Source: Escherichia phage vB_Eco_CWW26
Strand: one strand, 5' to 3'
DNA length: 48,021 bases
Sequence record: PQ900155.1
Position numbers and translations under genes: made by a program. How positions within the stretch are numbered: position 1 is the first letter of the stretch; each line of letters begins with the position of its first letter. The notes beneath the pieces are model-generated. The model did no database searches and was not told the DNA's origin. It saw only the letters and a program-made list of their open reading frames with translations. This document shows, in pieces, positions 15,199-23,166 of the stretch.

Positions 15199-15702
15199 AT
15201 GTCAGTCAACATTACAGAATTGCAAAAGGCTAAAGGCATCATACGCGACAGGCTCGGGAGATTTGTTAAAGCCAGTAATCGTGTGATCACTGTTGGGATA
15301 CATGAGGACGCGGGTGAACATCCTGACTCCAGTATGACAAATGCCCAGCTTGGTGCATTGCTGAATTACGGTAACCCGAATAACAAATTGTACGGTAATC
15401 CTGCACCTATTCCGCCGCGCCCCTGGCTGATACCCGGTGTGGAAAGTGGTAAACAGGACATCATCGACACCATCGCTCACGGTGTAGCCAATGATTTACC
15501 GCTTGACCAGGTTCTGGAACAAGTGGGCGAGTTTGCAGCTGGTGCCGTTCAGCAATACATGACCGATTTACAGCAACCCCCAAACAGTCCCTACACTATT
15601 GCTCAGAAGGGTTCCAGTAATCCACTTATCGATACTGGTGCTTTACGTGCAAGCGTGACGTATAAGGTCAGCAACGAAAAACCTGATGAGGGTATCTTAT
15701 GA
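15199..15702 (+). CDS. head-tail joining / virion morphogenesis protein (HK97 gp10-like, putative)
   Basis: C-terminal IDTGALRASVTYKV motif; first rightward gene after repeat copy B. Confidence 0.4.
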   Translation: MSVNITELQKAKGIIRDRLGRFVKASNRVITVGIHEDAGEHPDSSMTNAQLGALLNYGNPNNKLYGNPAPIPPRPWLIPGVESGKQDIIDTIAHGVANDLPLDQVLEQVGEFAAGAVQQYMTDLQQPPNSPYTIAQKGSSNPLIDTGALRASVTYKVSNEKPDEGIL

Positions 15703-16052
15703 GTCTGTCAATGCGTGGTCATATTGACAACGTGTTTAAATCTGTACCGGCGACACATGTGGGTAAATCTGGCTCATACGTGGACGGTATCTGGACACCC
15801 GTGACATCCGGACCGGTTGCGTTCACGGTGAACATTCAACCACTGAGCGACAAGGAAATTGATTTTCTGCGTCAGGGCGGTCAGCGCATCGTTGACCCGC
15901 GTAAGATATACGTTAACAATGGTGACCTCGACTCAATCGCGCTCGATGGTGAATGGGTATTCCTGGGTCAGCGCTGGAAAGTCATTCGCACTGACAATCG
16001 CCCGTGGCGTAAATACTGTAAGGTAATTGTGGACCGCTATGACCAACAATGA
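15699..16052 (+). CDS. hypothetical tail-module protein (117 aa)
   Basis: ORF track; ATGA overlap with upstream gene. Confidence 0.45.
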   Translation: MSLSMRGHIDNVFKSVPATHVGKSGSYVDGIWTPVTSGPVAFTVNIQPLSDKEIDFLRQGGQRIVDPRKIYVNNGDLDSIALDGEWVFLGQRWKVIRTDNRPWRKYCKVIVDRYDQQ

Positions 16053-16563
16053 AATCTTTGCAGCTCTCAGGCCGCATATACTCAACGTGACGGGTGTCAG
16101 CGAGTGTATCCTTGCCGACCCCAACGGACCGTCTCCGGACGGCCCCTACGCGTCTGTACGCCCACGTCAGAGCATCCGTGAACGCGGTCAGGCGAACATC
16201 ATCATGACCGACGGCGCAAATGACACCATCGTGTACGAAATTCGTGCGCAGATTGTCGCATCCTGTGAAATTAATTTCTTCCGCGGTGAAGCAATGCAGT
16301 ACGCTGAAATGCTGAAGGAATGTCACAAGCGCCCGGACGTGTGCTGGTCCCTGTGGCAAAAGGGGATTGGCTGGGGTGGGACTGAACCAGTTAATAACCT
16401 GACAGCGCTACAGGCGAGCAACTTTGAACAGCGTGCACAAATCATCGTTAAACTACTTTACGAAGCGGTAAATACGGTGACAGTAAATAATATTCTGCAC
16501 GCTCCGGTTAATGTGTGGGACGAGTACAACAGAGTATTACTTTCTGATGAAATTTCGATATAA
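16039..16563 (+). CDS. hypothetical tail-module protein (174 aa)
   Basis: ATG at 16039 within ORF-track frame 16027..16563. Confidence 0.4.
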   Translation: MTNNEIFAALRPHILNVTGVSECILADPNGPSPDGPYASVRPRQSIRERGQANIIMTDGANDTIVYEIRAQIVASCEINFFRGEAMQYAEMLKECHKRPDVCWSLWQKGIGWGGTEPVNNLTALQASNFEQRAQIIVKLLYEAVNTVTVNNILHAPVNVWDEYNRVLLSDEISI

Positions 16564-16603
16564 TGGTCAACGTGTGCACACTGTAACTTACGAGGACTCG
16601 TAA

Positions 16604-17740
16604 ATGTCTTTTCCAGTTGAACAAATCATCCCAATCACGACCCGGATTTCTCCGGCGGGGTTAGGTACGGCAAACTTCGCTTCCGCGATGTTGTTTGCTA
16701 AAAACTCCGAACTCCCGAGCAGTTTCACCAAAGACACTGTTCGTACCTACTATTCCACCTCTTCTCTCGCCGCTGACTTTGCCCCTACGACTGAGACGTA
16801 CAAGGCTGGTGCCAAGTTCCTCGGCTCCACCCCCGCTGTACCGAAACTTACCGTGTGGGCTACCGCTGACGATGATGCCGATATCAAAGCAACGCTGACC
16901 AAAGCATTTGACAAGCATTACTGGTACTGGACACTTTTCACCAAAGACGTGCTGGCAACAGAGGCAAACGTATTGTCGATCGCATCCTGGTGTGAAGAGA
17001 ACAGCATCATGTTCCCGAACAGTCAGACTGGTGAGGCTGTGGTTAAAATTCGCAACCCTGACGCCAGCGATGACATCTGTTCACAGCTGAACACGCTGGG
17101 CTATCGTCACGCGTTTACCGTCGCTCACGCAACTGACCCATATGCGGCTTATGCGCTTATCAAGCATTCTGCTTCAGTCAATTACAGTGCTGACAACAGT
17201 ACCATTGATACCGAGTTCAAGAAATCTCCTGGTGTTGCTGCTGAAGACCTGTCCGACACCGAACAGAACGCGATGGTTGCCAAACGCTGCGCATTCTACA
17301 GTGTGCTCGACCTGCAAGGTAGCGCTGACAGTGGTCGCTGGTTACAGACGTGGTCGCACAGCACCTACGGTGAGTCTATTTCCGATATCGTCGATTTGGA
17401 TGCATTTGTGAACTCTCTGCGTGTGGAACTATACAACACCATCGTTAACCAGACCACCAAACTTCCGCAGACTCCTGTCGGTCAGGAAGCGCTCATTGGC
17501 GCCGCCAAACGTGTCGGTAAACAGTACATCCGTAACCGTTATCTCGGCCCGCGCAATTACACCAGTCCTGACACTGGTCTGGAAGCGTACACCGATGGCT
17601 TCGAAGTGCTGACTAAAGCGACGGATATTCTCGACTTGTCCGATTCTGACCGCGCGGCACGCAAGTCTGCACCGATTAACATGCGTGTGTTCAAAGCCGG
17701 CAGTATTCGCATCTGTGATGTCACCGTAGACGTTTATTAA
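16604..17740 (+). CDS. tail sheath-like protein (DUF3383-like, putative)
   Basis: 378-aa ORF followed by a 138-aa ORF, the sheath/tube arrangement; family from memory only. Confidence 0.45.
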   Translation: MSFPVEQIIPITTRISPAGLGTANFASAMLFAKNSELPSSFTKDTVRTYYSTSSLAADFAPTTETYKAGAKFLGSTPAVPKLTVWATADDDADIKATLTKAFDKHYWYWTLFTKDVLATEANVLSIASWCEENSIMFPNSQTGEAVVKIRNPDASDDICSQLNTLGYRHAFTVAHATDPYAAYALIKHSASVNYSADNSTIDTEFKKSPGVAAEDLSDTEQNAMVAKRCAFYSVLDLQGSADSGRWLQTWSHSTYGESISDIVDLDAFVNSLRVELYNTIVNQTTKLPQTPVGQEALIGAAKRVGKQYIRNRYLGPRNYTSPDTGLEAYTDGFEVLTKATDILDLSDSDRAARKSAPINMRVFKAGSIRICDVTVDVY

Positions 17741-17753
17741 TGGAGAATGACCG

Positions 17754-18170
17754 ATGTCATTAGAAAACTTTTCCACAAGTAACACGGTCATTACTATAAA
17801 TGGCCGAATCATTACTGATTTCGGGGAGTCTGACCCGCCGTACACTGACGAGCCGATTGACGCATCCACTGCGTTACGTCGTGGTCTCGGCGGTAACGCT
17901 ATTCGTCTGGACCGTATCAACCCGGGTCGTCGTGTCACGCTGAACCTCAACCCCGGCTCGGCTGACTCCGCGTATATTAACGGGCTGTTTCTGAGCAAGG
18001 CTAACATCGAGTTGACCTATACTCAGATTGGCACACTTGACGCCGCTGTTGGTGCAGAAGGTGTGATTGTGAACGATGGTCCGCGTGGGCGTGGTGGTCA
18101 GACAATTACCGATGACCAGTGGATTTTTGAGTTCAATTCATGGACTGCGTCAAAGGGTCCGGCAAGCTAA
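17754..18170 (+). CDS. tail tube-like protein (putative)
   Basis: 138-aa ORF after the sheath-like gene, followed by a bidirectional terminator. Confidence 0.45.
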   Translation: MSLENFSTSNTVITINGRIITDFGESDPPYTDEPIDASTALRRGLGGNAIRLDRINPGRRVTLNLNPGSADSAYINGLFLSKANIELTYTQIGTLDAAVGAEGVIVNDGPRGRGGQTITDDQWIFEFNSWTASKGPAS

Positions 18171-18174
18171 ACAA

Positions 18175-18194
18175 AAGGGGCCTGATGGCCCCTT
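18175..18194. terminator. bidirectional rho-independent terminator
   Basis: AAGGGGCC-TGAT-GGCCCCTT between convergent genes; T-rich on both sides. Confidence 0.65.
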
Positions 18195-18196
18195 AG

Positions 18197-18532
18197 TTAT
18201 TTCTGGTTGAGCATGGCGGTGCGGTAGGATTCATCCTCACCAAATATAGCCGCCTCCAGTACATCAATGGCTTGCGATGGTGAGTGTGAATATTTATCGA
18301 AGGTCGGACCTTTGATGAACTGTGCGATTTTGAACAGTCGTTTTTCTTGCGCGTGATACAAATCACTTAGTTTCTTATATCTCTCATCGGACTCACTATC
18401 CATCGTCGCCAGGAGCATTTTATACACCTGAAGATTGTATTCACCGTTCATCGATAGCTGACCTTGCTCATCTTTTATTTTGTACAGTCGGTCGATTTGT
18501 GTAATCAGGTTTTCTTTTGTCACTCTTCTCAT
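18197..18532 (-). CDS. hypothetical protein (111 aa)
   Basis: ORF track; second gene of a leftward two-gene cassette in the tail module. Confidence 0.45.
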   Translation of the reverse strand: MRRVTKENLITQIDRLYKIKDEQGQLSMNGEYNLQVYKMLLATMDSESDERYKKLSDLYHAQEKRLFKIAQFIKGPTFDKYSHSPSQAIDVLEAAIFGEDESYRTAMLNQK

Positions 18533-18777
18533 TTTCTTTTACTCCGAATGTGAAAGTCTGCTTTATCCATCATATCTTTACGCCAGCAAACGCCGGTACC
18601 CATATACGCCGGGTCGTCACTTTCCGCATAACCAAATTCATTTTCATGATACGTGCAAATCGTGTCGGTCTGTCCGTCATAAATCTGGAACTGATCACCT
18701 TGTGCAGCGTGGGCACCGCTGCAGTAAATTGTCGCAGCCATGATGACTGCTAACTGAATTTTAAATTTGTGAATCAT
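18529..18777 (-). CDS. small secreted protein with signal peptide
   Basis: MIHKFKIQLAVIMAATIYCSGAHA then mature part with 3 Cys; ATG at 18777 with AGGAGA SD. The ORF-track TTG at 18837 is the promoter -35. Confidence 0.5.
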   Translation of the reverse strand: MIHKFKIQLAVIMAATIYCSGAHAAQGDQFQIYDGQTDTICTYHENEFGYAESDDPAYMGTGVCWRKDMMDKADFHIRSKRK

Positions 18778-18808
18778 TTCTCTACTCTCCTGTTGTTCTG
18801 CTGAGGTA

Positions 18809-18837
18809 ACTATAACCCACCTTGACGAGTCCGTCAA
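18809..18837 (-). promoter_or_regulatory. sigma70-like promoter, palindromic -35 (leftward)
   Basis: Minus strand TTGACG-gactcgtcaaggtgggt-TATAGT; palindrome TTGACGAGTCCGTCAA 18822-18837. Confidence 0.6.
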
Positions 18838-18897
18838 TAATTGATTGATGATTTCGTCAGGGGTACACTGTAACGACTAACAACCGGAGAAATAAGA

Positions 18898-19272
18898 ATG
18901 TCACTCATTAAAACTTTTACCGCTGGCGACATCACCGTAAACGCCGCGATGCCTTCCGCAATCGAGCAGGACGAACTATTATCCCTGGTGAGCGCACAGT
19001 TTATCGCACATGCCGCCAACGTTTACAAAAACGGCGGCGAACTCGGTGTCAAAGATGTAACCCTGTTGCTCACTGCTGTACCGCATCACATCAAGCAACG
19101 TATTACCGATGTACTTCTGAGTAAAGCAATGACGGCTGGTACTAACACTAAAATCACAGTGAATGATTTCCCCGGTAAAATGATGACGCTAAACACTCTG
19201 CTGGCAGAATTGTTTCTGTGGGTTTATGCTGATTTTTTCGATTACGTGCAAAACGCAAACAAAGACGAGTAA
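18898..19272 (+). CDS. tail assembly chaperone (putative, zero-frame product)
   Basis: 124-aa ORF between tube and tape measure genes; slippery heptamer near its 3' end. Confidence 0.45.
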   Translation: MSLIKTFTAGDITVNAAMPSAIEQDELLSLVSAQFIAHAANVYKNGGELGVKDVTLLLTAVPHHIKQRITDVLLSKAMTAGTNTKITVNDFPGKMMTLNTLLAELFLWVYADFFDYVQNANKDE

Positions 19273-19481
19273 GGGACACCGGGCGACCCAGCCCGGTTAA
19301 CTGGTACTTTATGCGGGTTTGCACGGGTATCGAGGGAGTGTGCCCACCTCTTTGTACATGGGCGCAGTTAAAAGATGGTACAATATCGCTTGCTGAAGTC
19401 GAACAATTTCACTTTGCGATGGATGAATTGCAGGGTAAGTATATCGAGGCGATGAACAATGCAAGAAATTCCCCTAAATAA
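18898..19481 (+). CDS. tail chaperone frameshift fusion product (putative, ~194 aa)
   Basis: Predicted product of a -1 shift at 19233-19239; the extension begins RLRAKRKQRRVR. Confidence 0.3.
19233..19239 (+). other. candidate -1 programmed frameshift site T_TTT_TTC
   Basis: Canonical X_XXY_YYZ heptamer 11 codons before the chaperone stop; the -1 frame is open for 80 further codons to TAA at 19479-19481. Confidence 0.4.
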
Positions 19482-19755
19482 TGGCGCGGCTAACGCTCAT
19501 CAGACTTTCACGGTTAAGCTGGGTGACAACGTTCTCGACTTTGCGCTGGATTACATCAGCTATACCGACAAGCCCGCGTGGACAATGACTGTCTCACAGG
19601 ATGGTATCAACTACATCACCGGTGCAATGCTTGTCCCAAATGCTGAGGTCAGCAAAGCATACCGCGCCGGACTGGGTCGTTTTTTCTTTGTGGGCGATGA
19701 GGTAACCATCGACAACCTCGGCGTTGATAACCATCTTCTGTGGGTGCCCGAATAA
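19459..19755 (+). CDS. hypothetical tail protein (98 aa)
   Basis: ORF track; stop overlaps the tape measure ATG (TAATG). Confidence 0.4.
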   Translation: MQEIPLNNGAANAHQTFTVKLGDNVLDFALDYISYTDKPAWTMTVSQDGINYITGAMLVPNAEVSKAYRAGLGRFFFVGDEVTIDNLGVDNHLLWVPE

Positions 19756-21092
19756 TGGCTAATGTGATTACGCAGTTTCTGGTCGGTCTCGGCATCTCTT
19801 ACGATGGTAAAGGTGCTGAACAGGCTGAAAAAGATATCGACAACCTCGGCAAATCGGCGGAGCAAGCCGGTAGTCGGATGGACGATGTCGGCAAGTCCCT
19901 CGACCAGGGTGTTAAAACCGGTGTAGAAAATTCAAAATCACGCATCATGAGTCTGGTCGCTACGTTCAAAGGAGCAGGACTTGCGATGTCCGGTGTTGCT
20001 GCGGGTGTCGGCGCAGCGTGGGCGTTTGAGTCGAAGAAAGCGCAACAGGCTTACGACCTGAACAACCAGCTTGCAACCAGTCAGTTCGGACCAACTGAGG
20101 TTTACGGACTTGGTGCACTGGCTGAACAGCGTGGCGGCGACCGGCAAGCAACAACAAACAGCCTTTTAAATATTGAGCGTGGAATTAACCGCATTCAGAC
20201 CGGTGACGCCGGGATGATTCAACAACTGGCGGTCGCAGGAATCCGTGTCGATAACCCTACGGGGCGTACACGCGAAGATATTTACAGCGACATCGCCGGA
20301 CAGTTCCAGCACCTCGATACGACGCGTCAGAGCAACGTAGCGGATATTTTAGGTCTCGACCCGGCTACCGTCAGAGTATGGCAGGAGTTCGGCACTACAA
20401 CGCTGGAAGTGTCAAAAGCCCGTGCCGCTGAACTGGGTTACACCGAGAAACATAATGCAGCACTGGATGCAATCAATCAGACCATAATTGACACGCAACA
20501 GAAAATGGAAGGACTGGGTAACACTATTGCAGATGTTCTCGCACCCAGTATTAAAACCTTGTCCGATAGTTTCCTGTCTGCTGCCACGGGTTTTACAAAC
20601 TGGCTGAAAGCACACCCTGATTTACCGACGGATATCGTAAGTGGTAACTGGTATGATAAGTATATTGTTGGTAGTGCCAATAATACAGCGGAGTGGATCA
20701 AGGAGAAAACAGGATTCGATACCCGTGATATTGGGAGGTCTTTTAGCGCCGAGAATAATCCACCAAAACCAGATTACGACTACACCAGGAAGCCAGAAGA
20801 TAAACCACAACAATCATTTGTGTGGCAGCAACCACAGCAGGAGAATATCATCTCCAACGACGGTTCATACGGTGCCGAAGCAAGCCCGGTAACGAACAAT
20901 TACGCGCAGCAAAGCCAGCAGATGAGTCAGATTATGGAGTCCATAAACCGTCCGATTCAGCTTAACGGTAATTTTACCACACAGGGCGACGTGATACTGG
21001 ACGGTAATGCGATTGGTCGTTATACCGTGAATCATCTTGAGACGCAGGTGTATCCACAGGCGATTGACCAGACCCGGCAAAGGAGTTACTGA
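19755..21092 (+). CDS. tape measure protein (putative, short)
   Basis: 445 aa; Ala/Gly-rich hydrophobic segment GLAMSGVAAGVGAAW; position after chaperone genes. Confidence 0.45.
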   Translation: MANVITQFLVGLGISYDGKGAEQAEKDIDNLGKSAEQAGSRMDDVGKSLDQGVKTGVENSKSRIMSLVATFKGAGLAMSGVAAGVGAAWAFESKKAQQAYDLNNQLATSQFGPTEVYGLGALAEQRGGDRQATTNSLLNIERGINRIQTGDAGMIQQLAVAGIRVDNPTGRTREDIYSDIAGQFQHLDTTRQSNVADILGLDPATVRVWQEFGTTTLEVSKARAAELGYTEKHNAALDAINQTIIDTQQKMEGLGNTIADVLAPSIKTLSDSFLSAATGFTNWLKAHPDLPTDIVSGNWYDKYIVGSANNTAEWIKEKTGFDTRDIGRSFSAENNPPKPDYDYTRKPEDKPQQSFVWQQPQQENIISNDGSYGAEASPVTNNYAQQSQQMSQIMESINRPIQLNGNFTTQGDVILDGNAIGRYTVNHLETQVYPQAIDQTRQRSY

Positions 21093-21094
21093 TA

Positions 21095-22519
21095 ATGGAT
21101 TTGCGCCAGTATGAGATACTCATTGATACAAAGAATTTCATCACTCAGTCGTACCCGATGCTCCGGTGCTCGTTCGATGTAACAACGTATACCGGCGACA
21201 GTCTGAGTACCTGTGAGTTTCGCTTGTGGAACCTCGCACCGACAACGAAGATTGAACCTAATCAGACCGTTGTTTTTCGCGCCGGGTATCAGTCGCGCAT
21301 GGGTCAGATTTTTACTGGATTTGTTACCAACGTTTTCACTATTCGTGACGGTACTGACATTATTACACGTGTGACGTGTCGCAGCGGTAGCAACGTGCTC
21401 GACGGTGGGACAACGAGTGCAAGTTTCGGTAAGGGGGTGACATTGTTTGACGTCCTGACCAGCCTCGCACAGGACTGGTCAAAACCGCTATATCTTGTCA
21501 ATAGCGTGGACAAATTTACCTCTATTGTCATGGTTAGCGGCTACAACGTCAGCTCCGACATTAGTAAAGAACTCGATATTCTGGCCAAAGCGTATGGCTT
21601 CGAATGGCATCTGTACGCTGGACAGGTGTTTGTCGGATTCCCGTCTGATGACCGTAAAGCCACACCTGTTAAAATCAGTTCCGCCACCGGGATGATTGAT
21701 GCTCCCACGCTTCACGGCGGTATTGATGGTGTATTCTGTGACGTTAAAATGCGTCTTGACCCCCGTATGACACCCGCATCGGTGCTCAATATCGAGTCAA
21801 AATGGCCTAAATTCGATTTCGGAGCAGTGGAGTTCCAGACAACCGTCGACGCTAAACTGGAAGGTGACTGGAACGTTCAGACCATTCAACACACTGGCGA
21901 TACACATGGTCCCGACTGGTACACATTTGTCAAAGCTGTGCGCGCCGGGTCAATGGATACCACCACGGCAAATGCTGACGTTGGTAATCGTCTTATTTAC
22001 GGTCGCGTGGGTGTGCAGGGTGAGGATGCCAGTCAGCAACAGGATTTCCGTACTGAGGTGCGTAAACTTGGGCAAAGTCTGGGTATCAGTCCTAACTGGA
22101 TTATGGCTGTAATCTCTGCCGAGTCTAACTTCAATCCACAGTCAAAGAACAGCAAATCCGGCGCGGTAGGACTGATTCAGTTTACTAATGCCGGTTGGAC
22201 GAGTGCGTTTCAGAGTAAGTACGGTCGCAATAAAAATATCATCCTGTCAATGACTGCAGCCGAACAGGTGAGGGGTCCGATTACTGATTATCTCAATCAA
22301 TATAAAGGGCGTTACAAGACAATGGGGGATGTATACATGGCGGTATTCAGTCCGGCATTTATCGGTAAACCTTCAACAACCGTGATGTACACGTCACCGT
22401 CCAAAGCGTACAATCAGAATGCAGGGCTTGACACGGAGCATAAAGGTTACATTACTGTCGGTGACGTGTGGCGGCGTGTTGAGGAACGATTCAGACAAGG
22501 TAAGGCGTACATGTTATGA
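21095..22519 (+). CDS. tail protein with lytic transglycosylase (SLT) domain
   Basis: C-terminal AVISAESNFNPQSKNSKSGAVGLIQFTNAGW matches the SLT signature (E-S...GLMQ). Confidence 0.55.
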   Translation: MDLRQYEILIDTKNFITQSYPMLRCSFDVTTYTGDSLSTCEFRLWNLAPTTKIEPNQTVVFRAGYQSRMGQIFTGFVTNVFTIRDGTDIITRVTCRSGSNVLDGGTTSASFGKGVTLFDVLTSLAQDWSKPLYLVNSVDKFTSIVMVSGYNVSSDISKELDILAKAYGFEWHLYAGQVFVGFPSDDRKATPVKISSATGMIDAPTLHGGIDGVFCDVKMRLDPRMTPASVLNIESKWPKFDFGAVEFQTTVDAKLEGDWNVQTIQHTGDTHGPDWYTFVKAVRAGSMDTTTANADVGNRLIYGRVGVQGEDASQQQDFRTEVRKLGQSLGISPNWIMAVISAESNFNPQSKNSKSGAVGLIQFTNAGWTSAFQSKYGRNKNIILSMTAAEQVRGPITDYLNQYKGRYKTMGDVYMAVFSPAFIGKPSTTVMYTSPSKAYNQNAGLDTEHKGYITVGDVWRRVEERFRQGKAYML

Positions 22520-23166
22520 GTTTAATTAACCTTCTGGTAAAGCGCGGTCCACAGCTTGGGTCGCTTCAGTTCGATGCCGTCCTGTCTGATGACCTTGATG
22601 CCAGCGTGGATATCGTGCAGTACCCCATTGAGACAGGTACGCCAATTGCAGACCACATTATCTATCAGCCTATTCGTTACACGATGACAGGTGCAGTATC
22701 GAACAACCCGTTGAAAGTTAGTATCACCGATTTCACCGGGGCATTGACAAATCTTGTCGATGACAATCCGTTCATTGCAGCGGGTGCCGGTCTGTTCGCG
22801 GGGTGGTTGAGCGGCTCAAATGAAACTCGCTCCAGTACGACACTGAATACTTTGCTCGATTTCATGTACTCCGGTCAGGTATTCACAGTGGATACGGGCG
22901 AAATTACGCTGAACAATATGGTCATTCAGCGTATTGGGCGCTCTAAAGACCCGGAGAATGAGAACGGATTGATATTTGTTGCTGAACTACAGCAGATTGT
23001 CACGCTTGACCGCGTGGCGAACGGTTCACAACCGGCACAATATCAGCTGAACAGTAACGACGTTTCCAGCACGTCCATATCAGGACTGATTGAGCGTGGT
23101 TATATCAATGTGAAGACAGCTGCAACGAATGTTGCCGACCAGGTTACGACACTTTTGGATTTGTAA
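22516..23166 (+). CDS. hypothetical tail / baseplate hub protein
   Basis: ORF track; last gene before the non-coding island. Confidence 0.4.
   Translation: MSLINLLVKRGPQLGSLQFDAVLSDDLDASVDIVQYPIETGTPIADHIIYQPIRYTMTGAVSNNPLKVSITDFTGALTNLVDDNPFIAAGAGLFAGWLSGSNETRSSTTLNTLLDFMYSGQVFTVDTGEITLNNMVIQRIGRSKDPENENGLIFVAELQQIVTLDRVANGSQPAQYQLNSNDVSSTSISGLIERGYINVKTAATNVADQVTTLLDL

Follow-up and report, generated by a model that had tools for sequence, protein, structure and literature searches.

A probable programmed -1 ribosomal frameshift in the tail assembly chaperone gene of the Jedunavirus myophage vB_Eco_CWW26

The slippery heptamer of the tail assembly chaperone pair gpG/gpGT of phage lambda is G_GGA_AAG. 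Xu, Hendrix and Duda are said to have described in 2004 a frameshift that is conserved among tail chaperones, and a -1 frameshift in the FETUD tail operon of phage P2, that of gpE and gpE+E', was reportedly described by Christie et al. in 2002. In this study, 48,021 nucleotides (nt) of DNA from Escherichia phage vB_Eco_CWW26 (sequence record PQ900155.1; the whole stretch is called the window, and coordinates are positions in it) were analysed with respect to a tail assembly chaperone open reading frame (ORF) that carries the heptamer T_TTT_TTC near its end. Expression of this chaperone gene, which belongs to a Jedunavirus myophage, very probably involves a programmed -1 ribosomal frameshift. 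This frameshift is an unannotated addition to the lambda G/GT and P2 E/E+E' kind, and its mechanism is not new.

The ORF list and its translation place the chaperone ORF at 18898-19272 on the plus strand, with a length of 124 amino acids (aa). The codons at the site read ...GCT GAT TTT TTC GAT TAC..., with T_TTT_TTC at 19233-19239 in the X_XXY_YYZ register of the chaperone ORF, and the heptamer is followed by 10 sense codons and the 0-frame stop TAA at 19270-19272. The -1 frame contains a TGA at 19230-19232 and hence opens exactly at 19233, with the heptamer; from 19239 it runs for 80 sense codons and is closed by a TAA at 19479-19481. The predicted fusion consists of 114 + 80 = 194 aa. Among the predicted tryptic peptides, MMTLNTLLAELFLWVYADFFR spans the junction, DTGRPSPVNWYFMR is an example from the -1 frame, and MMTLNTLLAELFLWVYADFFDYVQNANK belongs to the 0 frame. 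A preliminary description, made from the sequence alone, had named the heptamer, its position in a chaperone gene and an open -1 frame of 80 codons; register, coordinates and frame were all confirmed. A +1-frame alternative was rejected, as the +1 frame ends 9 codons past the chaperone stop and shows no conservation. The locus comprises the following features:

18898-19272, plus strand: 0-frame tail assembly chaperone ORF, the gpG/gpE analogue (ORF, phrog_9141, PF21822 matches of homologues, AlphaFold 2 model)
19233-19239, plus strand: slippery heptamer T_TTT_TTC (register, conservation in relatives, heptamer efficiency in E. coli, PMC4066793)
19239-19295, plus strand: first 19 codons of the -1 frame, Arg/Lys-rich linker RLRAKRKQRRVRDTGRPSP, overlapping the 0-frame ORF in its last 10 sense codons and its stop (translation)
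19245-19325, plus strand: 81-nt irregular hairpin, candidate stimulatory RNA (folding)
19270-19272, plus strand: 0-frame stop TAA, end of the 124-aa product, which would be the abundant one under the proposed model
19296-19481, plus strand: conserved C-terminal domain of the -1 frame (VNWYFMRVCTGIEGVCPPLCTWAQLKDGTISLAEVE...) with its TAA, the gpT/E' analogue (phrog_4364 / DUF6889)

The chaperone ORF is preceded by a GGAG Shine-Dalgarno sequence, and its product matches phrog_9141 with an E-value of 6e-57. Fourteen of 22 aligned homologues match PF21822 Phage_TAC_15 (best E 2.9e-17), and a profile that includes the chaperone of this phage retrieves PF21822-labelled proteins with E-values from 7.6e-33 to 1.8e-6. 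As judged by these sequence comparisons, its place in Phage_TAC_15 holds by transitive homology through the homologues. The AlphaFold 2 model of the chaperone has a predicted local distance difference test score (pLDDT) of 91.5. Its top Foldseek match is the HK97 tail assembly chaperone 2ob9, at a weak level (E 0.24, template modelling score about 0.4), and a profile search of the PDB sequences with the chaperone alignment returned nothing below E 0.4. Position, size, family link and frameshift agree in identifying the upstream ORF as the chaperone, the fold evidence being suggestive only.

Relatives were drawn from GenBank phages, IMG/VR and four distant DUF6889 loci. The slip site was compared in 73 distinct related sequences with upstream ORFs of 124-172 aa, and the chaperones were clustered at about 55% identity, which gave 17 lineages. 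In all 73 distinct sequences, and likewise in the four distant DUF6889 loci, the extension lies in the -1 frame relative to the upstream ORF. In none of the 73 is the reading from the slip site to the conserved (V/I)(N/D)W...PPLCTW...DGTYSLA(D/E)VE domain interrupted by a stop codon. A run of at least four T, beginning at codon position 3 of a homologous xFF motif, is present in 71 of them; the runs are T6C in 52 sequences, T7A in 12, T8 in one and T9 in one. The homologous site reads NNT TTT TTN in 15 of the 17 lineages. The codon before TTT TTN is GAT, GGT, AGT, CGT or CCT, such that the T is constant and the amino acid varies. The background in these genes is a TTT share of only 46% among Phe codons and a T at only 20% of third positions. 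There are three exceptions. One subgroup inside the largest cluster has GAT TTT TCN (T5) or GAT TTC TCG, with only a U_UUY tetramer left; phage vB_VpP_1 has A_AAT_TTT and A_AAG_GGC; and the pOW20-A group has GGT TTT or G_GGT_TTT. All of these exceptional slip sites likewise pair with a -1 extension. The preliminary description had seen in the heptamer the expected place of a G/GT-type chaperone frameshift and had pointed to relatives for a check. The conservation of the slip site and of the -1 frame supports that expectation, with heptamer and open frame kept from close Jedunavirus phages to chaperones of about 12-30% identity.

The relatives also differ in how the 0 frame ends. In many non-Jedunavirus relatives (loci L004-L010 and L042-L093, at the site homologous to 19296-19304) the 0-frame TAA or TAG is embedded in the -1-frame codons GTA AAY/GAY TGG, which encode V-N/D-W. 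In Jedunavirus the 0-frame termination lies about 10 codons earlier, and the V-N-W codons read GTT AAC TGG.

The 80-aa extension matches phrog_4364 over residues 21-79 (E 1.1e-19), and ten of ten aligned extension homologues match Pfam PF21829 DUF6889 (best E 4.1e-11). Selection was analysed in 26 distinct Jedunavirus variants. Past the 0-frame stop there are 23 variable columns, 18 of them at third positions of the -1 frame, and in the part upstream of an internal ATG, 19273-19310, the same is true of 10 of 14 columns; the dual-coding overlap has only 2 variable columns in 40. Family matches and substitution pattern identify the -1 ORF as a real protein family under purifying selection. The conserved domain, of about 55 aa, corresponds to phrog_4364 / DUF6889. 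Between it and the slip site every relative has a basic stretch of roughly 19-21 aa, for example LMAGRRRKKRQ, LLGRRRKHQ, AASRRKSRA or LAAKRRKRRSAG. The chaperone and the extension were modelled as two separate halves, and AlphaFold gave a linker with pLDDT 57-62 and no secondary structure, then a compact helical domain with pLDDT 84-91. The Arg/Lys-rich stretch is thus probably a conserved flexible, disordered linker, as far as the models indicate. The preliminary description was right about the Arg/Lys-rich start of the extension but had listed it as a low-complexity caveat, which does not stand, since the basic character is kept in all relatives and a disordered linker is predicted. The database proteins of the extension family number 104, and all are orphan ORFs of 40-91 aa with none fused, as is expected if gene callers overlook the frameshift.

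In GenBank and in several relatives the downstream ORF is annotated as a separate gene. Such a gene would need no recoding and would give a free 56-aa DUF6889 protein from the ATG at 19311-19313. This Met is conserved in 81 of 85 distinct relatives, and most of the folded part of the domain comes after it. The four other relatives, however, have Ala, Trp or Leu in its place. The ATG has no Shine-Dalgarno sequence in front of it, and the helix of the 81-nt hairpin takes up two of its bases in pairs. An upstream start codon for a separate gene is not available either: in this phage the -1 frame lacks ATG, GTG and TTG from 19239 up to the ATG at 19311, and in 70 of the 85 distinct relatives the stretch from the slip site to the conserved VNW motif is free of start codons. 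The VNWYF motif and the basic linker, both upstream of the Met, are conserved and under selection, with the variation mainly at -1-frame third positions as given above. Furthermore, the -1 frame is uninterrupted between slip site and domain in every lineage, and the downstream ORF is always -1 relative to the chaperone. In a scan for promoters and terminators, promoter-like sites occurred at the level expected by chance and no terminator was detected; nothing therefore indicates that the small ORF has a transcript of its own. A separate gene without recoding is therefore a very unlikely account of the locus, and the -1 ORF is best read as the C-terminal part of a chaperone frameshift product.

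The annotation of this ORF varies between records. The window agrees coordinate by coordinate with the genome of Escherichia phage ZCEC13 (Jedunavirus; ON086804 / NC_071140). GenBank ON086804 labels the -1 ORF (19311-19481) as 'tetracycline resistance leader peptide', and the RefSeq entry NC_071140 omits the feature. A joined coding sequence was present in none of the 12 annotated records that were examined. The label 'tetracycline resistance leader peptide' is spurious, the ORF being the C-terminal part of the chaperone frameshift product, and it is misleading for a phage considered for therapy.

The RNA downstream of the slip site is strongly structured. The fold of 19200-19340 has a z-score of -5.3, and the 95 nt after the heptamer reach -38.1 kcal/mol, within the top 0.7% of 3978 windows in this genome. 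An irregular hairpin of 81 nt at 19245-19325 (-34.7 kcal/mol) has a basal helix of 8 bp, in which CGUGCAAA (19245-19252) pairs with UUUGCACG (19318-19325). This helix begins 5 nt after the heptamer. The apex is a GC hairpin at 19278-19297, with CCGGGC (19279-19284) paired with GCCCGG (19291-19296). The preliminary description had reported a CCGGG/CCCGG stem about 40 nt away with an interval of 7 nt. That hairpin is real and lies 39 nt past the heptamer, but the interval is 8 nt. Its further remark that the nearest stem is farther away than usual did not hold, as only the apical hairpin had been seen and the stable long-range stem starts 5 nt after the heptamer. In the 26 Jedunavirus variants 98.5% of pair cells are kept, and the one-sided changes that keep pairing are G-C/G-U or A-U/G-U switches. 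A role of the 81-nt hairpin as frameshift stimulator is plausible, not proven.

Other clades have unrelated local hairpins 4-7 nt past the heptamer, such as GGCUGCC/GGCAGCC, GGCUGGAC/GUCCAGC and GGUUGC/GCAACC. RNAalifold found no consensus structure in 48 diverse non-Jedunavirus cassettes, in which the register of the hairpin shifts by at least one base between clades. In its place each sequence was folded singly and compared with the background of its own locus in a 50-nt window, and about a third of the tested sequences did not exceed the 5th percentile of that background. No Rfam family was found in 18800-19800. Inspection by eye of 19215-19232 gave no convincing upstream Shine-Dalgarno-like stimulator of the dnaX style. 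A small hairpin at 19200-19223 (GCUGGCAGAAUUGUUUCUGUGGGU) is weak and G-U rich, and 9 nt separate its end from the T-run that follows.

Among the mechanisms that compete with a ribosomal frameshift, transcriptional slippage is the main one. RNA polymerase would add one U at the T6 run, and some mRNAs would then encode the fusion in a single frame. The resulting fusion protein would be the same, and the selection for a long T-run, seen as NNT TTT TTN, fits this mechanism as well. In addition, UUUUUUU is avoided in all frames, possibly owing to transcriptional slippage (Sharma et al., PMC4066793). The runs of the relatives reach T7 in 12 sequences and T8 and T9 in one each, the last in Vibrio phage 1.186.O, and so approach lengths that are known to slip. 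Bacterial RNA polymerase usually needs runs of about 8-9 or more to slip, but only T6 is present in this phage and in 52 of the 73 distinct relatives. The clade with T5 or GAT TTC TCG keeps the arrangement too, and what survives there is only the U_UUY tetramer in the ribosomal register. The stable hairpin 5 nt downstream has the geometry of a ribosomal stimulator, and the hairpin upstream, at 19200-19223, stops 9 nt short of the run, a distance too large for an invasion of the RNA-DNA hybrid. A T6 run and an upstream hairpin not adjacent to it do not make up a programmed transcriptional slippage site. Overall, we regard transcriptional slippage as an improbable explanation of this locus; a T6 run makes it unlikely, as do the runs of the T5/T3 clade, and it could contribute in the T8-T9 relatives. 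In Vibrio phage 1.186.O (locus L008) the slip site at 1435-1443 consists of nine T, long enough for RNA polymerase slippage or for length heterogeneity, and ribosomal and transcriptional recoding may be mixed in this phage.

For the ribosomal frameshift, the following course of events is proposed. Most ribosomes would read 18898-19272 and release the 124-aa chaperone. A minority would pause at U_UUU_UUC, with tRNA-Phe on UUU in the P site and on UUC in the A site and with the 81-nt hairpin at the mRNA entrance. Both tRNAs would then slip one base back and re-pair with UUU UUU. tRNA-Phe (anticodon GAA) reads UUU and UUC alike, and both tRNAs would therefore stay cognate after the change from UUU UUC to UUU UUU. 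Reading would resume with CGA at 19239, and in the predicted 194-aa fusion the basic, disordered linker joins the chaperone domain to a DUF6889 domain that is small and helical. As in the analogous pairs gpG/gpGT of lambda and gpE/gpE+E' of P2, the N-terminal domain common to both products would coat the tape measure protein (19755-21092), and the rare C-terminal domain would recruit the tube protein (17754-18170). A fixed ratio of the two products would be needed for tail assembly, and neither would stay in the virion. U_UU.U_UU.C and U_UU.U_UU.U are among the efficient heptamers in E. coli, with more than 0.1% frameshifting even without a stimulator, and U_UU.Y ranked as the second-best class of tetramers (Sharma et al., PMC4066793). 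The latter ranking explains the clade that has only the tetramer. Anatomy, conservation, -1-frame coding selection and the stable downstream structure are observed here; the occurrence and efficiency of slippage, a stimulatory role for the hairpin and the identity of the binding partners are inferred.

Several observations weigh against a programmed ribosomal frameshift, or against parts of it. The chaperone of this phage has no direct Pfam match at E <= 0.1, and its extension reaches 20.2 bits against DUF6889, under the gathering cut-off of 23.9 bits. None of the 26 Jedunavirus variants has a double compensatory change in the hairpin, and because the hairpin lies within coding sequence its conservation alone is no proof of an RNA role. 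The marine Vibrio clades have no significant downstream structure. A free 56-aa product, separately initiated, may exist as an additional product. In the searched literature no experimental report of the fusion protein was found for this phage or its relatives; in the literature searched on DUF6889, Jedunavirus, ZCEC13 and JD001/phiPLPE/CP-T1 the frameshift was not found described either. A frameshift in X29 (PMC5690320) was set aside, as it concerns an unrelated phage.

The heptamer by itself is within chance, with 30 occurrences of TTTTTTY in the window and about 17 expected. This leads to the question whether heptamer and open -1 frame coincide by accident, with an extension that is unexpressed. 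A second in-register T_TTT_TTC at 19680-19686 is clearly fortuitous in appearance: it lies inside a plug-like gene (19459-19755), the -1 frame closes there after 4 codons with a TGA at 19698-19700, and the GenBank record of ZCEC13 reads CGC TTC TTC at this position, such that the copy is not conserved. It is probably fortuitous and serves as a negative control. At the chaperone, on the other hand, the extension is recognised as a protein family, purifying selection acts on it, and the arrangement is kept in 17 lineages. Thus the heptamer alone is not beyond chance, but its combination with the open -1 frame, together with the conservation of this combination, is: NNT TTT TTN recurs across 15 lineages despite the TTT and T usage of these genes, and the -1 frame is open and coding in every relative. 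Coincidence is effectively refuted already.

The overlapping chaperone and extension ORFs lie between the tube and tape measure genes, with two minus-strand genes and a plug-like gene interposed. The neighbouring genes are:

16604-17740, plus strand: DUF3383-type sheath gene (Pfam)
17754-18170, plus strand: tail tube gene, presumed partner of the -1 domain (phrog_280, annotated virion structural protein; follows the sheath gene; synteny in relatives)
18197-18532, minus strand: DUF551-like gene, between tube and chaperone
18529-18837, minus strand: hypothetical gene, between tube and chaperone, with a promoter-like site at 18837-18809
19459-19755, plus strand: Pam3_gp18-like plug gene, between extension and tape measure
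19755-21092, plus strand: tape measure protein gene, presumed partner of the chaperone domain (phrog_21358, E 5e-259; annotation)
21095-22519, plus strand: SLT-domain hub gene of the tail module

In MSW-3, phiPLPE, vB_VpP_1 and pOW20-A the chaperone follows directly after the tube gene, without the two minus-strand genes, which look like an inserted moron. Phage FZ14 has an anti-repressor Ant gene at their place. A comparison of 15701-22800 with ZCEC13 gave 186 mostly synonymous substitutions, all within 18541-22548; 146 are transitions, and most fall on third codon positions. There are none in 15701-18540 and none in the frameshift cassette 19216-19505. Amino-acid changes number 0 in the chaperone, 2 in the plug, 17 in the tape measure protein and 4 in the hub. 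The divergent patch of about 4 kb suggests a recombinant or mosaic allele, or else a different isolate.

The family to which the two genes of this phage belong is that of the PF21822 Phage_TAC_15 and PF21829 DUF6889 pairs in E217/phiPLPE/CP-T1-like myophages. The synteny there is sheath (DUF3383/E217_gp31_N), tube, TAC_15, DUF6889 and tape measure, and the pairs are always in -1 relation, the homologous xFF motif being the place of a T-rich slip site, as here. Jedunavirus differs from the other TAC_15/DUF6889 clades in three respects: the 0-frame tail is about 10 codons shorter, the 81-nt long-range hairpin replaces a local one, and two minus-strand genes stand between tube and chaperone. We put forward only tentatively, as a possibility rather than an expectation, that DUF6889 is the unrecognised 'T domain' of a clade of small myophages with Phage_TAC_15 chaperones (Jedunavirus, phiPLPE, CP-T1, MSW-3 and E217-like prophages), always made via a -1 frameshift whose recoding signal evolves. 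If this is true, most clades use a local hairpin, and Jedunavirus replaced it with the 81-nt hairpin, in which the internal AUG is hidden as well; in one clade the heptamer decayed to a U_UUY tetramer, which implies slippage of a single tRNA, and relatives with a T9 run may add transcriptional slippage. With the frameshift of this phage, DUF6889/phrog_4364 can be assigned a function, that of the frameshifted C-terminal domain of Phage_TAC_15 chaperones. The long-range hairpin of Jedunavirus is a lineage-specific candidate stimulator, and the clades form a comparative series for the turnover of stimulators, in which the same slip site is accompanied by different downstream RNA structures or by none. 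The understanding of recoding is unchanged by the finding.

Lambda gpG/gpGT follows the same logic as this locus: the tape measure gene is preceded by two overlapping ORFs, of which the first carries an X_XXY_YYZ heptamer close to its end and the second lacks its own start, and a low product ratio is expected (PMC5009743). Lambda differs in its heptamer, in being a siphovirus and in its protein families, which are unrelated in sequence.

The closest characterised case is P2 E/E+E'. Both phages have a contractile tail and a small chaperone ORF between the tube and tape measure genes. The slip site of P2, GGT TTT TTG (T_TTT_TTG), and that found here, GAT TTT TTC, share a near-identical run in the same register, and in both the shift site precedes the 0-frame stop by a few codons and the extension has roughly 50-80 aa. 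The P2 chaperone, with 91 aa, is shorter than the 124 aa found here. Unlike in P2, the extension begins with a 19-aa basic linker, and a plug-like gene (19459-19755) stands between the extension and the tape measure gene. The extension alignment showed no similarity to P2 E' (hhalign probability 0.1%), and neither the extension nor its aligned homologues matched PF06528, the P2 GpE family. By these profile comparisons, the site functions like that of P2 E/E+E', yet its extension is outside the P2 GpE family.
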